From a virus (lineage: Duplodnaviria > Heunggongvirae > Uroviricota > Caudoviricetes): a stretch of DNA of 23,379 nucleotides. Both the position numbers and the translations under genes were made by a program. The stretch is from the IMG/VR virus record IMGVR_UViG_2802429220_000004. One strand, written 5' to 3'. A model generated the notes under the pieces. That model saw only the letters and a program-made list of their open reading frames with translations, searched no databases and was not told where the DNA came from. Within the stretch, counting starts at the first letter, position 1; each line of letters opens with the position of its first letter. Of this stretch, positions 1-15,262 are shown piece after piece.

Positions 1-194
1 GTTCCTGCTGTCAGCCCCGACCACAAGGCTTTTCCGTGTTCTGTATTATCCGTTTCCGTTGCGGTATACGGCAGCCATACCTGCTCTCCTTTTTCATTCA
101 CCGCATCTTCAAACTGCACCTCGCAGTTTATCCCGCCATTTTCGTTATACGCAGCATTACGAACGGCAATAACACCAGTTACCGTCTCTGCCAT
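1..194 (-). CDS. Hypothetical protein, 5' part only (runs off the window); first gene downstream of the tail fiber
   Basis: ATG at 194 preceded by GGAGGA (complement of 198-203); open to the window edge; N-terminus MAETVTGVIAVRNAAYNENGGINCEVQFEDAVNEKGEQVWLPYTATETDNTEHGKALWSGLTAG; not in the ORF track because truncated; it does not resemble lambda Tfa as I recall it. Confidence 0.55.
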   Translation of the reverse strand, partial: MAETVTGVIAVRNAAYNENGGINCEVQFEDAVNEKGEQVWLPYTATETDNTEHGKALWSGLTAG

Positions 195-211
195 AACTTT
201 TTCCTCCTCGT

Positions 212-1255
212 TTATTTTATACGAATAAACAGTGACTTCCCTGTCGACATCCCTACATATCCAAGGCAACGCCATGTCCCTGACAGAGTGACAGCCGAGT
301 TGTCGAAACTTACATCAGCATCATAAGAAGATGACGGGCGCAACTGGCTGGCTGCAACACTGTCGCCATAGTCTGCTGTGCCTTCGTACATGGCATAAAC
401 CAGAGAACCTATATCCCCCGCACTGACCTGTTGAGCACCTGGTCCAGGATCGCCTTTATCACCTTTCGGACCCTGCGCACCTGCCGGGCCTGCGGCTCCC
501 GTATCCCCTTTAGGTCCCTGTGGCCCTGCCGGGCCTGCGGCTCCCGTATCCCCTTTTGGTCCCGGTGGCCCCGCCGGGCCTGCAGCTCCCGTATCCCCTT
601 TCGGTCCCTGCGGTCCTGCCGGACCTGTGGCTCCTGTATCCCCTTTTGGTCCCTGCGGCCCCGCCGGGCCTGCAGCTCCTGTATCCCCCTTGTCGCCCTT
701 CGGTCCCTGTGGACCTCCCGGGTCGCCCTGCTCACCTTTCGGGCCGGTATCCCCCTTATCGCCCTTGTCTCCTTTATCCCCCTTTGGCCCCTGTGGGCCT
801 GTATCACCCTTGTCTCCCTTCTGTCCCTGCGGACCCGTTGCTCCGGTGTCGCCTTTCGGTCCCTGTGGTCCCACCGCCGTTTCCGCTTTCCTCGCCGCTT
901 CCTCTGCCCTGCTGACAGCCGCATCCGCCGCGTCTTCCAGTTTTTTCAGCGACTCAGGGTAATAAGTGCTGTCCTGCTCACGCAGCAAAAACGCATTCAG
1001 TGTGCCCGGCTCGTCGTCTGCCATGACGTCAATCTCGCCAGCGCATGCCGGCTGACGGCCTTCCACGCACAGGGTCACACGATAACGCCCCGGCTCAACC
1101 TGCATGGTGTAACTGCCTGTTTCCCCTGGCTGACACTCCGCCACCGTGGTGACTATCACCGTCTCACTCGTTCGCGTGGCTTTCAGCTCTATGGTGCAGT
1201 CCGGTACCGGTTTTCCTGTACCATCCTTCAGCACACCTGAAATCTGTACTGACAT
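212..1255 (-). CDS. stf: Side tail fiber protein (lambda Stf-like N-terminal domain) with a central collagen-like Gly-X-Y region
   Basis: N-terminus [17 protein letters not shown]...GTLNAFL parallels lambda Stf ([17 protein letters not shown]...GTLNDFL); about 140 aa of uninterrupted G-X-Y triplets ([16 protein letters not shown]...); ATG at 1255 preceded by a G-rich SD. Confidence 0.85.
446..877. repeat. Tandem 45-bp (and 9/18-bp sub-period) DNA repeats encoding the collagen-like Gly-X-Y region of the tail fiber
   Basis: Near-identical units such as ggtccctg(c/t)ggccc(c/t)gccgggcctgc(a/g)gctcc(c/t)gtatcccct recur head-to-tail; the repeat keeps several frames open on both strands. Confidence 0.85.
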
Positions 1256-1264
1256 ATTCCCCCC

Positions 1265-1293
1265 ACAAAAAAGCCCACCAGAACCGGCGGGCT
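1265..1293 (-). terminator. Terminator-like hairpin plus U-run after lom
   Basis: On the minus strand GCCCGCC-GGTTCT-GGTGGGC followed by TTTTTT. Confidence 0.5.
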
Positions 1294-1319
1294 GTCATAA
1301 CTCTGTGTTACCTGGCTAA

Positions 1320-1919
1320 TCAGAATTTATAACCGACACCCACAATGAAACCGTCAGTGCGCCAGTCGCCACTGCCGGAGCCTTCATAAGCAATATCAAT
1401 GGCCACGGATTCGGTCGGGTTAAACTGCACGCCAGCCCCCCACGCCAGTGACGTGTTGCTGTGGCGACCGTCATCACTTCCGGTCAGCACATCGTGCGTT
1501 TTCCCCTTGTTGTCAGGTACACGGAGATAATCCCCGGAAAAAGTCGACACTCGACTGTAAGCCACACCCACCATCGCATACGCGCTGAACCCTTCATTCA
1601 CGCGCACAGACGGCCCCGCCATCACGCTGAACCAGCGGTTACGAATGGAATCTTCATGCCAGCGGGTATCACTGTAACGGGTAAGCTGGCGATTCATGTC
1701 TCCTGCATAGCTGAATGACGTCACCAGCCCCAGCGTGTCCGTAAATTCATAGCGGTATTTCACGTTGAATCCGGTTAAATCATCACTGCCGGACATATCA
1801 GAATGGGTATGAAGATACCCGGCACTCAGAGTGGAGTGATTCTCTGCTGCACCCGCTGGCGCACCCGCAGCGGCCAGCCAGACGACTGCAGACATAATAA
1901 CAGCACATAATTTACGCAT
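1320..1919 (-). CDS. lom: Lom/Ail-family outer-membrane beta-barrel protein (moron)
   Basis: N-terminal signal peptide (MRKLCAVIMSAVVWLAAAGAPAGAA), C-terminal ...GVGYKF typical of OMP barrels; position directly after J as in lambda; hairpin plus U-run on both sides. Confidence 0.88.
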   Translation of the reverse strand: MRKLCAVIMSAVVWLAAAGAPAGAAENHSTLSAGYLHTHSDMSGSDDLTGFNVKYRYEFTDTLGLVTSFSYAGDMNRQLTRYSDTRWHEDSIRNRWFSVMAGPSVRVNEGFSAYAMVGVAYSRVSTFSGDYLRVPDNKGKTHDVLTGSDDGRHSNTSLAWGAGVQFNPTESVAIDIAYEGSGSGDWRTDGFIVGVGYKF

Positions 1920-1940
1920 AATTACCTCTCGCTTTTCTGC

Positions 1941-1968
1941 AATAAAAAAGGCACCATTTCTGGTGCCC
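1941..1968 (-). terminator. Terminator-like hairpin plus U-run after J, before lom
   Basis: On the minus strand GGCACCA-GAAA-TGGTGCC followed by TTTTTTATT. Confidence 0.55.
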
Positions 1969-1986
1969 TTATATGGGTTATAAAAT

Positions 1987-4900
1987 TCAGCTGATACTGA
2001 TGCCTGCGGTGGCTTTCTTCATCACCACAACCAGCAAATCGCTGATACTTGCTGTGGGATACCAGTTATTCACCAGCCATGCTGACACCGAAAACTCCAG
2101 TGTCATGTGACCGTGACCGGCAGGCATATCAATAACGCCACTGTAAATCAGCGTATTATCCAGCGCGGTACGGTTATAAATTTCAGCACCGTTTTTCCGC
2201 ACTATCAGACGGCATGAGGAGTAAATATCAGTATGCTCTCTCTCATGCTTAGCGCCACTGAATGCCACCGCCGGAATAACAATCTGCCGGTCAAACGGCT
2301 GATCGTCATAAACCCTGACGGTAATGGTCCCTGATGGCCACCGCTCCGGTGCCCGGGAGTCCCGCGGGAAAGCCTTACCCACTGTTTTGACAATATCGCC
2401 TTCAATCTGGTTGGCTGACAGTTTCCCCTTAATCTGACAGTTCTCATTAATCGTGACGTTGTTGAGCGTCCCTGAGTTCGCATTCACACTGCCACTGATA
2501 TCCGCATTTTTAGCGGTCAGCTTTCCGTCCGGTGTCAGGGAAAATGCCGGTGGATTTCCACCACTGGTAATGGTGGGGGCCGTCAGGCGTTTCAGGAACA
2601 CGTCGTTCATGAATATCTGGTTGCCCTGCGCCACAAACATCGGCGTTTCATTCCCGTTTGCCGGGTCAATAAACGCGATACGGTTAGCGGCAACCAGAAA
2701 CTGGCTCAGTTTACCGTCCTCCGTGTCCTCCATGCTGAGGCCAAGCCCGGCAACATAATGCTTACCGTCTTCGGTCTGCTCAATTCTGACGCCCCACATG
2801 GCATTCCATTTATCGTTAGCGTCTTTCCACTCTTTCGAAAACTCATCCAGTCTGCTGGCGTTATCTTCCGTCAGTTCAGCGTTTTCCAGCAGCTCTTTAC
2901 CGAGATGTGTTTTATTAATCAGCCCTTTGTAAAAATTCAGGTAGCCTTCGGCATCATCGCTGGCCCGGCCGACGGCCTCCACAAATGCCGATTTGCCCAC
3001 CAGGTTGACGCTGCGGATATAAAAATAATAATCATGGCCCGGCCTGATATTACTGGCGGCTGTCCAGTACAGCGCCGTGCCAAGATAGCGGGCGGAGGTT
3101 TCAACCTGCCTGATATCCGCAATCTGCTGTTCCGAAAACCAGAATTCAAACTGCACCGTCGGGTCATATACAGCCAGTTTCGGGACCGCCGTTATCTGAA
3201 AATACCCCGGTATCAGTTCAATGGTGGCAGGCGCTGCCGGGGCGTCAATCCGGAACGTGGTGGTGGCAGGTTCGCCCTGCTGGCCATAGCTGTTAATCGC
3301 CCTGACCGTCAGGGTGTATTCCCCGGGCGGCAGACCACTGAAACGGTGCGCCGTGTCTGCGGTGATGGCGGTGGTCACCAGGCGGCTGTTTTCACCGCTT
3401 CCGCTGGTCAGACGCAGACTGAAGCTCACACCTTTCACCACCCGCGGCGTGTCCCATTTCGCCTGCGCCAGATACTGGCCGTCTGAGGCACTCACCTCCA
3501 CCGTGAGGTGCTGCACTGCCGGAGGGATAACGCTGTTCAGGGTGCCTGACTGCGGCTCAAAGCTGGCCCCGTTATCCACGATGGCTTCTTTTTCCGGTAC
3601 GTGCTGCACCGCCGTGATGGCAAAGGTGCCATCCGTGTTTTCCCGGATGGCGACACAACGGAACAGGCGACGACGCAGTGACGGCAGGGAGAGTCCCCAC
3701 ACACCGTATGTCGCCACGCCATCAGGCAGGGTACTGACCTGTATCCGGTCCGGCGCGGGGTGTGCGGTGATGTCCACACTCATCGGCTTACCGCTGCCGT
3801 TAATCAGGTTCACCGTGGCGGTACCGGTCTCCGGCAGTGTCACCTCACGGTCCAGCGTCAGTGTGCGGCTGGCAGCGTCGATGGACAGGATACGTCCGCC
3901 GGTCAGGGTCCCGGCGTAGTCGTTATCACAGATTTCAATGATGTCTCCGGGCGTGTGCCGCAGCCCCTGTGACCCGAGCGTGAAATCCACCGTCTGCGTT
4001 TCCAGCAGTCCGGTCTTTATCACCCACAGTCCGGCACGGTGGGCCTGACCACGACTGGTGCAGCCGAACGCATCCATCTTCAGCAGGTTGCGTCCGTAGC
4101 GCAGTATGGCTTCCGGGTCTTCCACCAGTTCCGTGGAGGTCTGCCAGCCGTTCTGCGGGTCGGTGTAATTCACCTCCACTGCCGTGTGACGGTCCTTCAG
4201 GGCGCTGAAGCTGTAGCGGAACCCCACGCCGTTATCATCCACCACCACATCGCTGTTGGTGTACGGCCACACCACATCCGACGGGCGGTCCTGAACGAAC
4301 GTCAGCGTCTGGCCGTTCCATACCGGCATACAGCGCATCGCCGAGCAGAAATCGCAGAGCACATCCCATGCCTTACGCTGCTGTGACAGGTACGCATTAA
4401 ACGTCATCCGCGGCTCTGTCCCTCCGAAGCCATCCGGGACACGCTGGTCACAGTACTGCCCGATGGCATACAGCGCCCACTTGTCCACATCCGCCGCCCC
4501 CAGACGTTTTCCCATGCCGTAGCGCGGGTGAGTCAGCATGTCCCACAGGCACCAGGCCGGATTGTTGCTGTATGCCGGTTTCAGACTGCCGTCCCAGATA
4601 CCGCTGTAAGTGCGTTTTTCCGGGTCATAGTTTGACGGCACCTGGATGATGCGACCGCGGATATGGTAGTTCACCGTCATCTGCTGGCCACCGAACTGCT
4701 CCGCATCCACCTGCAGCCCCACAATGGCCGTGTTCGGGTAGCACTGTTTCACATCGATGATTTCGGTGTATGACGACCACAGCGTTCTGTTCTGCAGCTG
4801 GTCCGTGGTGCTGTCCGCCGTCTCCCTGACCATCCGGATGTTAAAGGGGCGGGGAGGCAGATTATCCAGAATCACCGACGCCAGAAACTGCGAGGTGGTC

Positions 4901-5373
4901 TTGCCGTTAATGGTGACATCCTTTTCCGTCACCCAGTTACCGTTACGCTGTAACTGAATCAGCAGCCGGACAGAAGCCGGATTACGGTCACCCTGTGAGG
5001 TTGTCTGCACCAGTGACTGTACGCCGAAGGTGACCCGCAGGCGGTCAATGTTCGCGGACGTAATGGTGCGCGTCACCGGCTTTGCCTTCGTCACTTCCAC
5101 GCCCAGTGCGGTTTCAGCTCCGGAGGACTCAAAGCCTTCCGGCGGGGTCTGCTCCTGCTCCCCGGCGCGCCAGACCGCGGTCACACCGTGTATCACGGGA
5201 TTACCGTCCGTGTCCGTCAGCGGGGTTTTGTTCACCAGGATACTCTGCAGTCCCTTCACCGGGCCTTCCACCGGTCCCTCTCCAATCGCATCAATCACGC
5301 TCATCATCTGCGTGGATTTGAGATTATCCTTTGCCTCAACCGGCGTGTGCCCCTTGCCGCCACCTTTGCCCAT
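1987..5373 (-). CDS. J: Tail tip / host specificity protein J
   Basis: Co-linear with lambda J from [22 protein letters not shown] through most of the length; start placed at the ATG for MGKG (5373) rather than the upstream alternative start the track uses (5415); the C-terminal roughly 150 aa diverge from lambda J. Confidence 0.93.
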
Positions 5374-5404
5374 TGTCTCACCCTTTACTGTGATAACTGT
5401 TACG

Positions 5405-5437
5405 CACAAAAACAACAGGCATCCCGGAGGATGCCTG
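5405..5437 (-). terminator. Terminator-like hairpin about 35 nt upstream of the J start
   Basis: Perfect 9-bp stem caggcatcc/ggatgcctg with loop cgga; on the minus strand followed by TTGTTTTTGTG. Confidence 0.45.
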
Positions 5438-5566
5438 TATCATGACTGAATAAAAATTCTGAATTTCTTCACATTCTGAAAAAAAAGACTGTTGCGCTGA
5501 TAAATACGCTGCGTTACTTTTTAGTGCCTGAAAAATAACTCCATAACGTTAATCTTCATCGTTCTC

Positions 5567-5600
5567 TCCCGCAGCTCCGCGATCACTGCGGGATTTTTTT
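5567..5600 (+). terminator. Plus-strand terminator-like hairpin plus T7 run just past the 3' end of I
   Basis: tcccgcag-(11-nt loop)-ctgcggga followed by ttttttt on the plus strand. Confidence 0.4.
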
Positions 5601-5607
5601 ATTCTTT

Positions 5608-6288
5608 TTACCCCTGCCGCCCGATAACCACGACCTTTCCGCCCCCGCCTTCATCACGGGTGCTGATGTCCTGGGATATACGGCGGGAGCCAACCAGCAT
5701 TTCCCCGTAAGGCACCGGCATCGGGTTCCCCTGGGCAATCATGTTATCCAGCGAGGAAAAGTACGTGTTCTGTCTGCCGTTATCCGTTGCGCGGTAATCC
5801 GGTGTTTTTGCCTTCGGGGCCAGCATCTGGGCCACACCGCCCAGAATCATGCTGGCTCCCAGTGAAAACAGCATCGTGGTGGCAGAAAAACCGCCGGCAC
5901 TCAGGGCTGTACCCCATAACGCCATCGAGGCACCGGCAGTGAAGAAAGAGCCCACGATGGCTGCCGCCCCCAGCACAATCTGCAGTCCACCCTTTCCGGC
6001 CCCGGCCAGTCGCGGCACAATGTGGATGACCGTTCCCTCACCCAGCTGTTCGTGAAGACGGGCGTACACCGCCTCCGGTGCCGTGTCCTCACCGCGAATA
6101 CGTATCTGGTACCAGCCTTCGTTCATCTGACGGCGGAATCCCGGCATCTGCATCGACAGGGCACGGATGGCTTCCGCTGCCGTGTTCACATACAGGCTGA
6201 GGCGGCGGCCAAATCGTTGCAAATCCCCGTGAAGGCAGATGCGTGCCAGTGGCGGTGACGCCAGACAGAATGCGTTCGTCGTTGCCAT
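5608..6288 (-). CDS. I: Tail assembly protein I
   Basis: Strong similarity to lambda I (…RICLHGDLQRFGRR…, glycine-rich hydrophobic middle, C-terminal …GGKVVVIGRQG). Confidence 0.9.
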   Translation of the reverse strand: MATTNAFCLASPPLARICLHGDLQRFGRRLSLYVNTAAEAIRALSMQMPGFRRQMNEGWYQIRIRGEDTAPEAVYARLHEQLGEGTVIHIVPRLAGAGKGGLQIVLGAAAIVGSFFTAGASMALWGTALSAGGFSATTMLFSLGASMILGGVAQMLAPKAKTPDYRATDNGRQNTYFSSLDNMIAQGNPMPVPYGEMLVGSRRISQDISTRDEGGGGKVVVIGRQG

Positions 6289-6929
6289 TTTTCGGAATAC
6301 CTCTCCCGTTTACTCAGTTGTTCAGGCAGATGGTGAAGCAGTTCACCGTTGCCGCAGTAAATGGCGGCATGATTGGCCACCGATGCGCCAAAGCAGCACA
6401 GCAGGATATCGCCCGCCTGTGCAGAGGACAGGGGCACCCGGTAAAAGCCTGTGACCGCCATATTGTCCAGGTAAAGGTTCTGACCGTTGCGCCACCAGTC
6501 ATCCTCACGCACAAAATCCGGCAGCGTTATCCCCGCCAGATGGTATGCATCCCGGAACAGGGTGTAACAGTCCGTCACCCCGTGCTCAAAACGACGCCCA
6601 GTCAGGTGCGGCACACAGCGGAATTTGTGAATTTCCCCCCGGCAGACCAGCCACCAGGGCAGGGCACTCTTTATCTGCAGCCGCCGGTCCGCCTCGCTCA
6701 GCCAGGGCAGACCACCGGGGTGGCTGTGAACCAGCGCCACAATCTCCCCCTGCATCTCTGCCTGCAGCCAGTCTTCCGGCGCAATACGAAAATACGCCTC
6801 CGGCTCTGCGGAGATATTCACGCAGGGCTGGTACCGTTCGCCCTCCGGGGTGCCTATCACGAAGCCGCACAACTCCGCAGGCGCACACCGCCGGGCATGC
6901 ACCAGAATCGCTGATTCAGTCTGTGTCAT
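6186..6929 (-). CDS. K: Tail assembly protein K (JAB/MPN metalloprotease-like plus NlpC/P60-like domains)
   Basis: JAMM-like motif VALVHSHPGGLPWLSEAD, downstream Cys/His of an NlpC/P60-type fold; start set at the ATG for MTQTESAIL (6929), just after the L stop; 3' end overlaps the I start. Confidence 0.85.
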   Translation of the reverse strand: MTQTESAILVHARRCAPAELCGFVIGTPEGERYQPCVNISAEPEAYFRIAPEDWLQAEMQGEIVALVHSHPGGLPWLSEADRRLQIKSALPWWLVCRGEIHKFRCVPHLTGRRFEHGVTDCYTLFRDAYHLAGITLPDFVREDDWWRNGQNLYLDNMAVTGFYRVPLSSAQAGDILLCCFGASVANHAAIYCGNGELLHHLPEQLSKRERYSEKWQRRTHSVWRHRHWHASAFTGICNDLAAASACM

Positions 6930-6939
6930 AAAACAGGAT

Positions 6940-7638
6940 TTACTGCGAAAGTTTATTGATGGAAAGGAAACCGCCAAAATTAGCCACCATGCCGCGCATC
7001 TCACACCCGCGCATGCACTTGCTGCATCTGTCCTTACGGATATCGGTGGTGGGTTTATCGAACTCATCCGCCACAGCCCCGCCCGTGTAACCACACTCAT
7101 CAGAGCGGTAGGTCCACATACAGGTATTCGCCAGCATAATGCGACCGGGAAACAGCGCCCCGTCCGTCTCCGTCGGTGTCGCCAGCACAAACGAGGCTGT
7201 CATGGCCGTCAGCTCTGACATCTGCTCCACCACCCAGCGGTCGCTCAGCTCCTGCTCCGGGTCCGCTTCCGGATTGCCCGCCACAAAATTCACCGCATCC
7301 AGAAAACGGGCATACACCCGGCGGCGGACCACCGTTGCCCCCACCAGGCTCTGCAGGTCCTCCGCCATCCCGGTGACCAGACCAAACAGATTGGACACCG
7401 TCAGCGACGGGCGGGCACTGCTGCCCTTCCCGTTCATCTCAAAACCGCTGCCGTCAATCGGGTATACCTGATATTGCCGCCCCTGCCAGGTGACCGCCTC
7501 CCCTTTTTCATTCAGCTCATTGCAGAAAAAATAGCGCTCACCGCCCTGCACCGTCAGGTCAATTTCCCAGAGCACCACCCGCGGTGACTGCTCTGATTTA
7601 ACCGACTCGTTCAGGCTTTCTTCATGAATATTCTGCAT
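6940..7638 (-). CDS. L: Minor tail protein L
   Basis: Co-linear with lambda L including the C-terminal cysteine cluster (…DECGYTGG…CSKCMRGC…) and …NFGGFLSINKLSQ. Confidence 0.9.
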   Translation of the reverse strand: MQNIHEESLNESVKSEQSPRVVLWEIDLTVQGGERYFFCNELNEKGEAVTWQGRQYQVYPIDGSGFEMNGKGSSARPSLTVSNLFGLVTGMAEDLQSLVGATVVRRRVYARFLDAVNFVAGNPEADPEQELSDRWVVEQMSELTAMTASFVLATPTETDGALFPGRIMLANTCMWTYRSDECGYTGGAVADEFDKPTTDIRKDRCSKCMRGCEMRGMVANFGGFLSINKLSQ

Positions 7639-13877: not shown

Positions 13878-14204
13878 TCATAACACCGTCGGACAACGCA
13901 AATCGTAAATCAGCACGGACACAGAAAACGGCAGTTCCCCCTGCACGAGGTCTTCCCGCTCAGCAAGATCCGGATTCCGGTACAGCATCCCGGTCAGTCG
14001 CATGGCAGCCCCCTTCATCCGGGTTAATGCCTCGCCCGGGATCAGCTCACCGTCCTCACGAATCACTTTATCCCGGCTGCCCTGAATGTAGGCCAGCAGC
14101 ACGGCGGTAGCCTGACGAACCTTGTCCATCAGCATGTCATCATCCGCGTCATGGTCAACACGCAGATGTGCCTTGATCTCTTCCAGTGTCAGTAATGCCG
14201 TCAT
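13878..14204 (-). CDS. Head-tail connector protein (gp6-like)
   Basis: N-terminus MTALLTLEEIKAHLRVDHDADDDML… is typical of gp6-like connector proteins. Confidence 0.7.
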   Translation of the reverse strand: MTALLTLEEIKAHLRVDHDADDDMLMDKVRQATAVLLAYIQGSRDKVIREDGELIPGEALTRMKGAAMRLTGMLYRNPDLAEREDLVQGELPFSVSVLIYDLRCPTVL

Positions 14205-15262
14205 TTTCCGCCTCCTGCATCCCGTCCACGTTTTGCAGCCAGGGTCCAGCCTGATGAATGAGCTTCTCCGGGTTTATCACCGGTCATACTGTTGCAGTGC
14301 CACAGCGAGCCCCCCCACGTCACCGTATCGCCGGGGTGGTAGGTTTCACCGGCTCTGAACACACCGCGGTAGAGCATCACCGGCAGGGAAAATGTTTTTT
14401 CCGTACACTGGCCACTGCTCTGCCGGATCACCACAGAGAACAACCGCTCATCCGTCATGCTGACGTCGATATCCGCCACCCCGTCAACCAGGCATTCCCA
14501 TCCCCGCATCCCGTGCGTTTTTTCATACGCCCGCCAGAGTCCACCCAGGTGTGTGGCATACGTGCCCCGGGGAAAGGATTTTTGATCGTCAATAGCGGGG
14601 AGCACTTCCAGTGCCGTGGCATCACGCCCGTCCTGCGGAGCCGGAAGGGCATTCACCGCCTCCAGAACCGCCTGCTTCAGTACTTCCGGATCGTAATCAC
14701 GACCATCACGCGGAGCAGGGATATGGCTTACGGCCTCTTTCACCATCTGCTCAAGCATCGGACGCACATCATCCGGGGTGAGACTTTTACCGTCCGCCGG
14801 CTGCGGAATATTTGCGACCGCATCATTCACCGCCTGCCTCAGTACTTCCGGATCGTAGTCACGACCATCACGCGGAACAGGAATATGGCTTACAGCCTCT
14901 TTCACCATCTGCTCAAGCATCGGACGCACATCATCGGGGGTGATACTTTTGCCGTCTGCCGGCACCGGTATTTTCGCGACCGCATCATTCACCGCCTGCT
15001 TCAGTACTTCCGGATCATAATCGCGACCATCACGCGGTAGCGGAATGGCCCCCACTGCGTCATCCACCATCGCCTGCAGAACAGGGCTAACCTCATCCAC
15101 CGTCACATGCTTCTGTAACAGAGCGGACAGGGAAGCCAGTTTCTCTTCAAACGCTTGTGCCTGCGCGCTCATCTTCTCCTCAAATGTGCGCTGTAAATCC
15201 GCCAGCACCGTGGCGAATTCTTCTCCCAGGGCACGAATAATGGACAGTTCACGTTCATTCAT
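14201..15262 (-). CDS. Repeat-containing head-module protein (possible decoration or fibre protein): coiled-coil N-terminus, about 2.7 tandem 54-aa repeats, C-terminal possible carbohydrate-binding domain
   Basis: Repeats IPxPRDGRDYDPEVLxQAVNDAVAxIPxPADGKSxTPDDVRPMLEQMVKEAVSH; C-terminal …YHPGDTVTWGGSLWHCNSMTGDKPGE…GWTLA resembles a CBM5/12-type motif; ATGA overlap with the portal stop. Confidence 0.6.
   Translation of the reverse strand: MNERELSIIRALGEEFATVLADLQRTFEEKMSAQAQAFEEKLASLSALLQKHVTVDEVSPVLQAMVDDAVGAIPLPRDGRDYDPEVLKQAVNDAVAKIPVPADGKSITPDDVRPMLEQMVKEAVSHIPVPRDGRDYDPEVLRQAVNDAVANIPQPADGKSLTPDDVRPMLEQMVKEAVSHIPAPRDGRDYDPEVLKQAVLEAVNALPAPQDGRDATALEVLPAIDDQKSFPRGTYATHLGGLWRAYEKTHGMRGWECLVDGVADIDVSMTDERLFSVVIRQSSGQCTEKTFSLPVMLYRGVFRAGETYHPGDTVTWGGSLWHCNSMTGDKPGEAHSSGWTLAAKRGRDAGGGK
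14650..15045. repeat. Tandem 162-bp DNA repeat (about 2.5 to 3 copies) inside the 353-aa gene
   Basis: For example atatggcttac(g/a)gcctctttcaccatctgctcaagcatcggacgcacatcatc starts at 14721 and again at 14883. Confidence 0.85.

Follow-up and report, generated by a model that had tools for sequence, protein, structure and literature searches.

In the 23,379-nt DNA of IMG/VR virus record IMGVR_UViG_2802429220_000004 (Caudoviricetes), which at its full length is called the window here, the open reading frame (ORF) at 212-1255 on the minus strand codes for a side tail fibre with a collagen-like stalk, carried by a lambda-type prophage of E. coli. Some of this stalk is encoded by an array of five 45-bp tandem units, whose number differed by whole units between near-identical genes of complete E. 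coli genomes, and the similarity to other fibre genes broke off at or inside this array. Taken as a whole, the gene very probably belongs to a prophage of a lambda-like siphovirus and specifies a trimeric side fibre with a collagen shaft, in which the unit-wise variable array forms a mosaic joint. A preliminary description, made from the letters of the DNA, had proposed that this ORF encodes a side tail fibre with a collagen-like segment and recombinogenic 45-bp repeats.

Identification of a collagen-like side tail fibre gene

The proposed ORF was found in the ORF list on the minus strand with a length of 347 amino acids (aa). The gene and its parts were laid out as follows.

212-1255, minus strand: complete coding sequence of a Stf-like side tail fibre, 347 aa, stop codon at 212-214 (ORF list)
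875-1255, minus strand: PfN (phage_tail_N) domain, aa 1-127 (PF08400, E 2e-38)
983-1255, minus strand: collar domain, aa 1-91, predicted to dock on the tail (PDB 9E7M chain Ta, E 5.8e-27)
within 875-1255, minus strand: short helical neck, aa ~100-127
437-871, minus strand: collagen-like (Gly-X-Y) domain, aa 129-273 (regular expression, codon listing, PF01391)
704-727, minus strand: interruption G-D-P-G-G-P-Q-G, aa 177-184 (codon-by-codon reading)
455-679, minus strand: tandem array of five 45-bp units, aa 193-267 (Tandem Repeats Finder (TRF) and in-register units)
215-436, minus strand: beta-rich C-terminal tip domain of 74 aa, aa 274-347, ending ...GTWRCLGY...LFIRIK
1-194, minus strand: 5' end of the next gene, encoding a DUF4376 protein, truncated by the window edge (phrog_1141)

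The side tail fibre identity given in the preliminary description agreed with the match of aa 1-127 to PF08400 (131.8 bits against a Pfam cut-off of 26.6), with the match of aa 1-91 to the collar of Ur-lambda Stf in a search of solved structures (PDB 9E7M/9MGH, E 5.8e-27), and with the position of the gene after J and lom. The Gly-X-Y region scored 77 bits against the Pfam Collagen family PF01391 (cut-off 27.2). In PHROGs the protein fell into 'tail fiber protein' families (phrog_366, E 4e-76), and a 99% identical gene is named 'prophage tail fiber N-terminal domain-containing protein' in RefSeq.

A collagen-like protein encoded by a prophage might instead be a bacterial adhesin of the Lcl/Scl type, expressed by the lysogen and not part of the virion, and the best NCBIfam matches were indeed adhesin_Lcl (125.7 bits), SclB (106.1 bits) and SclA (91.5 bits). 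However, these scores were far under the curated cut-offs of 500, 325 and 400, respectively, and the matches were confined to the Gly-X-Y region. All of these families were rejected since every score was below its cut-off. In addition, the N-terminus is a Stf collar domain with no signal peptide, no LPXTG motif was present in the protein, and the gene lies in the late operon after J and lom, with terminator-like hairpins separating it from lom. An adhesin is thus highly improbable, and the protein is best read as a virion fibre.

Architecture of the collagen region and its tandem array

The Gly-X-Y domain comprised 145 residues, that is, 48 triplets and one extra residue. Pro occupied 23 of the 48 X positions, and charged residues made up 22.9% of the domain. 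The preliminary description had counted about 140 residues of uninterrupted Gly-X-Y; a run of that size is present at aa 129-273, but it is broken once, at GDPGGPQG, where a one-residue register shift separates 18 triplets (aa 129-182) from 30 triplets (aa 184-273).

The 45-bp period was confirmed by TRF at 457-688 (5.2 copies, 86% matches, no indels, score 331), whereas only weak periods of 9, 27 and 36 nt were detected at 743-872. Each 45-nt unit in the array codes for 15 aa starting with the consensus GA[A/T]. Contrary to the earlier picture of 45-bp units encoding the whole run, the array has just five units and accounts for 75 of the 145 collagen residues; the rest is degenerate repetition of a 9-bp type, the N-terminal half of the collagen region (aa 129-192) consisting of degenerate GDK/GPK/GDT triplets. 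The units were similar and in register, but the word 'near-identical' used for them had been too generous, as any two had 34-42 of 45 bases (76-93%) in common. Neighbouring units had exact repeats of up to 32 nt in common, and at an offset of 90 the longest exact repeat was 23 nt.

The Chi site (GCTGGTGG) occurred zero times on either strand of the window, where 1.6 sites are expected by chance, an absence that is not statistically remarkable. Chi sites were accordingly ruled out as a cause of recombinogenicity, and any recombinogenicity of this DNA would rest on repeat homology alone.

Repeat number in complete E. coli genomes

Copy number was compared across isolates by megablast of a 1400-bp query (window positions 1-1400) against 5,426 complete E. 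coli genomes, after which the loci were fetched and their genes translated; individual loci are given below by their L numbers. Places matching the query numbered up to 16 per genome, with a median of 2, and 13 records matched both ends of the query with spans of 1364-1629 bp. Proteins of the following sizes were obtained.

Window, L001 and L011: 347 aa, 30 triplets after the interruption
L002: 362 aa, 35 triplets after the interruption
L013: 362 aa, 35 triplets after the interruption
L003: 335 aa, 26 triplets after the interruption
L005: 350 aa, 31 triplets after the interruption
L006: 353 aa, 31 triplets after the interruption

Near-identical genes contained four units (L003), five units (window, L001, L011 and L005) or six units (L002 and L013), and the gaps of the DNA alignments inside the array were exactly 45 bp (L002 vs window) or 90 bp (L003 vs L002). 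Alignments with L005 and L013 likewise gave indels of exactly these sizes. The expansion and contraction suggested in the preliminary description was therefore supported, and the invariant repeat number that it had named beforehand as contradicting the idea was not seen among near-identical genes of complete genomes. With head-to-tail units of fixed length and whole-unit copy differences between near-identical alleles, the array is a variable-number tandem repeat (VNTR)-like locus. The window and L002 differed by 6 mismatches in 1044 bp, all six of them 3' of the indel, a pattern that fits replication slippage and unequal recombination alike.

Length differences extended to more distant genes. 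Relatives with a different C-terminal domain encoded proteins of 367, 397, 412 and 427 aa, the last three of which (L009, L007 and L008, respectively) differ in 15-aa steps. In a set of 120 database homologues together with the loci, the collagen total ranged from 42 to 159 aa in proteins with the same 74-aa tip and from 24 to 213 residues in the LFQRIS class. The interruption G-x-P-G-G-P-x-G was kept in most relatives.

Tandem repeats in general are prone to mis-assembly, and the copy-number differences could in principle be collapsed or expanded repeats of an array that is in fact stable. Two short variants, P0001 (305 aa) and P0004 (259 aa), came from ~1.3-kb contigs of read-archive assemblies, as this explanation would have it. 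In contrast, the alleles with four, five and six units were all found in RefSeq assemblies at the 'complete genome' level, and they differed by exact, in-frame 45-bp units. Six units occurred in the independent isolates of L002 (UK) and L013 (Japan), the five-unit allele recurred in the window, L001 (Canada) and L011 (UK), and an array of 225 bp is well within one long read or even paired short reads. We therefore regard an assembly artefact as very improbable and the copy-number differences as genuine.

The genes of L005 (NZ_CP104788.1, 743-1564) and L006 (NZ_CP149565.1, 743-1573) are recorded in RefSeq as pseudogenes, 'incomplete; missing C-terminus'. Translation nevertheless gave continuous reading frames of 350 and 353 aa, respectively, from the start codon up to ...SLFIRIK, and the pseudogene label is probably an error of annotation brought about by the repeat. 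The closest relative of the window was L001 (NZ_CP062876.1), which was 99.2% identical over window positions 1-1400. The prophage of L001 is decayed, with an insertion sequence (IS) element of the IS66 family in the place where J should follow lom and an IS1 beyond the DUF4376 gene (locus 1656-2353, 4977-7400). Unlike in L001, J is intact in the window.

Mosaic joints at the array

Comparison with other loci placed breakpoints of similarity at the array. L014 was 99.6% identical to the window over positions 1-538, after which the similarity collapsed inside the array. L007 and L010 matched the window at 87-88% identity over 457-1400 (the end of lom, PfN and Col); the tip portion at ~173-456 was unrelated, and identity returned, at 91%, over 1-172. 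These breakpoints indicate that the array is the boundary of exchanged modules, in both directions. Among the 120 database homologues and the loci, more than 20 distinct C-terminal classes followed PfN-Col.

The fibre of L014 (NZ_AP042598.1, locus 1386-4024) is a protein of 670 aa. Its N-terminus is unrelated, and it further contains a coiled coil, two collagen domains and a Pf2-type segment. Its gene adjoins that of a 'phage adaptor protein' and ends in the identical tip domain, which is followed by DUF4376, indicating that the cassette of tip and DUF4376 gene moves between different tail architectures.

In the decayed prophage of L004 (NZ_CP155555.1, locus 586-1653), a deletion of ~600 bp corresponding to window positions ~153-744, with only a few bases of microhomology, creates an in-frame fusion in which PfN and 14 Gly-X-Y triplets are followed by the DUF4376 protein from residue ~17 onwards. 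The resulting chimeric ORF has 355 aa.

The same data bear on what the variation is for. The repeat-number differences may be real but functionally neutral, in which case the collagen DNA would act as portable homology for swaps of fibre modules and not in length tuning. This explanation is favoured by the occurrence of one PfN-Col with more than 20 C-terminal classes, by the breakpoints at or inside the array and by the identical cassette on the L014 fibre. Inter-prophage recombination has moreover been proposed as the source of modularity in the collagen-like proteins EPclA-D of enterohaemorrhagic E. coli (EHEC) prophages (PMC3368898). Recombination partners are also plentiful, given the median of 2 and up to 16 query-matching places per genome. 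An exchange of modules nevertheless leaves length effects possible. Sylvestre and co-workers are said to have found in 2003 that the repeat number of B. anthracis BclA sets the length of the exosporium filaments. In Legionella, binding and biofilm formation by Lcl scale with the repeat number (PMC6460258). We give neutral variation a substantial chance, somewhat short of an even one.

The tip domain and its DUF4376 partner

The 74-aa tip matched no Pfam family at E <= 10 apart from noise (DUF6299, E 0.094). An AlphaFold2 model of the tip, built from ten homologous C-termini, was all beta with a mean predicted local distance difference test (pLDDT) score of 79. A Foldseek search with this model against the PDB gave nothing below E = 1, and no solved structure could be assigned, whereas many phage tail fibre proteins were found in BFVD with template modelling (TM) scores of ~0.6 and E values of ~1e-4. 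When 1.84 billion representatives were searched with a profile of the tip, 586 cluster representatives passed E <= 0.001. Of the 150 matches listed among these 586, nearly all stopped at the C-terminus of the protein or within 1-2 residues of it. The family was marked by the motif G[ST]Y[VL].A and then by ...GTW....G.....LF.RI[SRA]. Shafts of many kinds preceded the tip, and collagen was adjacent to it in 12 of 147 among the matches listed. The tip is a generic and widespread C-terminal fibre module without a curated family, and a candidate for a new family of tail fibre tips.

The part of the DUF4376 gene in the window codes for 64 aa and matched phrog_1141 'tail fiber protein' with E 1.3e-16; the full-length homologue in L001 matched PF14301, and phrog_1141 with E 2.3e-80. 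The DUF4376 gene travels with the tip domain as a cassette, as it co-occurs with the same tip in L014.

Free phages were searched in 50,697 phage records. A tblastn search with the tip gave one remote match from Aeromonas, and megablast with window positions 1-1400 matched only the lom/PfN 5' end, at 19% coverage; the fibre gene was found in none of these records.

Several observations weigh against the overall interpretation given at the beginning. The tip domain was present in no free phage of the 50,697 records, and the gene was seen only in prophages, some of which are visibly decayed (the IS insertions in L001 and the deletion fusion in L004). The identity of just 76-93% between units should limit RecA-dependent exchange, and the short variants P0001 and P0004, from short-read contigs of ~1.3 kb, possibly have collapsed repeats. 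PCoil and PfC, which the characterised EPclA has, are both missing from the fibre, so that a role of its own C-terminal domain in trimerisation and nucleation is putative. Finally, the triple helix, the trimer and the virion location of the fibre are predicted from homology.

Open frames overlapping the fibre gene

Four further ORFs overlap the fibre gene.

409-924 (minus strand), 431-1240 (plus strand), 520-915 (plus strand) and 627-962 (plus strand): spurious overlapping ORFs within 409-1240 (ORF list)

The preliminary description had attributed these ORFs to the repeats, which were said to keep several frames open on both strands. All four were present in the ORF list, and the base composition accounted for them: in the collagen region, the first and second codon positions of the coding strand contained 0% T. 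Stop triplets in this region were confined to one phase per strand (seven on the coding strand and one on the antisense strand), leaving five of the six frames open across most of it. The other-frame ORFs had 111-269 codons, a length that might suggest that one or more of them is a real overlapping gene. Their translations, however, were low-complexity strings of Arg, Pro, Leu and Ser that echo the Gly-X-Y period, the open frames arise mechanically from the T-free codon positions, and no sigma-70-like promoter was found in 1-2100. A real gene among them is exceedingly improbable; these ORFs are compositional by-products of the collagen-coding sequence.

Genomic neighbourhood

Directly upstream of the fibre gene lies lom (1320-1919, minus strand; PF06316, E 5.5e-113), and upstream of lom lies J (1987-5415, minus strand), with eight J-specific Pfam domains. 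The order J-lom-fibre gene was likewise annotated in L002, L003 and L013. In lambda, this slot behind J and lom is occupied by stf. The remaining window represented a complete lambdoid late region with small and large terminase, portal, protease-capsid fusion, tail tube, tape measure, L and I.

Two terminator-like GC hairpins with a T run were noticed on the minus strand, one at 1272-1293, right after lom and ~17 nt before the fibre start codon, and the other at 1947-1970, right after J. They flank lom in the manner of a 'moron'. With these hairpins around lom, the fibre gene would depend on antiterminated late transcription reading through. The promoter scan found no sigma-70-like promoter in 1-2100, and independent expression of the fibre gene or of the antisense ORFs is therefore unsupported.

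A second in-frame coding repeat was found in the ORF at 14201-15262 on the minus strand, just downstream of the portal gene. TRF detected a 162-bp tandem repeat at 14667-15037 (2.3 copies, 91% matches, score 630), coding for 54-aa repeats of the form ...PVPxDGxxxTPDDVRPMLEQMVKEAVSHIPxPRDGRDYDPEVLxQAV... The protein of 353 aa matched the 'portal protein' families phrog_1289 and phrog_2271 and no Pfam family. This repeat could likewise vary in copy number.

Proposed mechanism and significance

In the proposed mechanism, the collar domain (aa 1-91) would anchor the fibre to the tail at a site between tube and tip. Beyond the short helical neck, a collagen triple helix of ~145 residues would form the shaft. 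At the textbook collagen geometry of 0.286 nm per residue, this shaft would measure ~41 nm and each unit of 15 aa would contribute ~4.3 nm, with GDPGGPQG as one conserved kink or register shift. The 74-aa beta domain at the distal end would probably nucleate trimerisation and contact either the cell surface or the DUF4376 protein.

Because the units have exact stretches of 23-32 nt in common, we propose that replication slippage or unequal homologous recombination adds whole units to the array or removes them, which would change the physical length of the fibre. The repetitive DNA would also provide homology with paralogous collagen-containing fibre genes of other prophages, so that the array could serve as a joint for the exchange of N- and C-terminal modules. 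In a bolder version, the array would be a contingency locus that gains and sheds 4.3-nm shaft units at high frequency and in this way tunes the reach of the fibre to the depth of the O-antigen or capsule; the tip and DUF4376 would together make up a new receptor-binding cassette of two parts, which collagen homology would let travel between siphovirus-type scaffolds and others. We consider this version speculative and unlikely.

The finding is real but ordinary: a 2012 paper had already described this class of protein with its variable collagen lengths and modular exchange, and RefSeq annotates such genes as a matter of routine. The present analysis adds that length changes in this fibre lineage come as whole 45-bp units, that the array coincides with mosaic breakpoints, and that the tip is a widespread C-terminal module without a curated family. 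The residual novelty lies in the uncurated tip with its DUF4376 partner and in the idea that the number of units may tune adsorption. In lambdoid phages, some of which carry Shiga toxin and effector genes from one E. coli strain to another, side fibres make adsorption faster and the host range broader; length changes and tip swaps therefore bear on which E. coli can be infected.

Comparison with known systems

The nearest described proteins are the EPclA-D proteins of EHEC prophages, with PfN-(PCoil)-Col-C-terminal architectures (Ghosh et al. 2012, PLoS One 7:e37872; PMC3368898), whose modularity was ascribed to inter-prophage recombination as mentioned above. Their Col lengths differ between copies in multiples of three residues, a conserved G-x-P-G-G-P-x-G interruption occurs in long Col domains, and ~22% of the Col residues are charged. 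The protein rEPclA was a trimer with a collagen circular dichroism (CD) spectrum; it melted with a Tm of 42 C and looked like a dumbbell in electron microscopy (EM) (PMC3368898). Like the EPcl proteins, the fibre has PfN followed by a (Gly-X-Y)n Col domain, here with 48 triplets, Pro-rich X positions and 22.9% charged residues; GDPGGPQG fits the conserved interruption, and the gene stands after J and lom of a lambdoid prophage. By analogy with EPclA, which provides the experimental precedent, the fibre would likewise form a trimer with a collagen triple helix.

Unlike EPclA and EPclB, the fibre has no PCoil, an Ala/Ser/Glu-rich coiled coil of ~110 aa, and Col starts at aa 129, right after PfN. 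Its C-terminus is also not PfC (PF06820), nor any other Pfam family even at E <= 10. The EPclA of L012 (phage Stx2a_WGPS6) has a PCoil of ~120 aa rich in Ala, Ser and Glu as well as PfC, and its C-terminus is unlike ...GTWRCLGY...LFIRIK. Membership in EPclA was rejected since both PCoil and PfC are absent from the fibre. Judged by its sequence, the fibre is closest to the loosely defined EPclC/D group, which has 'different C-terminal regions' and often lacks PCoil.

Repeat-number-polymorphic collagen-like proteins are also known from bacterial surfaces, such as BclA of B. anthracis and Scl1/2 of S. pyogenes. Like Lcl of Legionella (PMC6460258), the fibre has Gly-X-Y triplets that arise from tandem DNA repeats varying in copy number from isolate to isolate, and in proteins of the Lcl type the repeat number changes the length or binding of a trimeric stalk with a C-terminal globular domain. 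In contrast to the fibre as read here, proteins of this type are secreted or anchored bacterial proteins and not parts of a virion.

Collagen-like repeats lie between the domains of host-recognition proteins in the antireceptor/tail fibre genes of Streptococcus thermophilus phages and in ORF8 of a virophage, where they are sites of spontaneous in-frame deletions and have been proposed to be recombination hotspots (PMC5601072; PMC7242381). An 81-nt deletion was associated with an expanded host range of the Guarani virophage (PMC5601072; PMC7242381). These repeats differ from the present array in belonging to unrelated hosts and protein families and in having other units (27 nt in Guarani).

Among structurally characterised fibres, the closest comparison is with lambda Stf (PDB 9E7M/9MGH; PMC12617516), which has a homologous collar and whose gene likewise follows J and lom. 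The collar domain of Ur-lambda consists of StfN residues 1-91 and contacts gpV and gpM, and three collar domains feed each trimeric fibre via flexible linkers, with four fibres per virion (PMC12617516). The two fibres differ beyond the collar. Lambda Stf has a hinged shaft of ~290 residues that forms an alpha-helical coiled coil, whereas the shaft of the present fibre is collagen-like, and lambda Stf ends in a gp37-like tip that needs the Tfa chaperone, whereas the present fibre ends in a 74-aa beta tip and its downstream gene encodes DUF4376 (PF14301) and not Tfa. By analogy with lambda Stf, the protein is expected to form a trimer and, as an accessory fibre, to accelerate adsorption.

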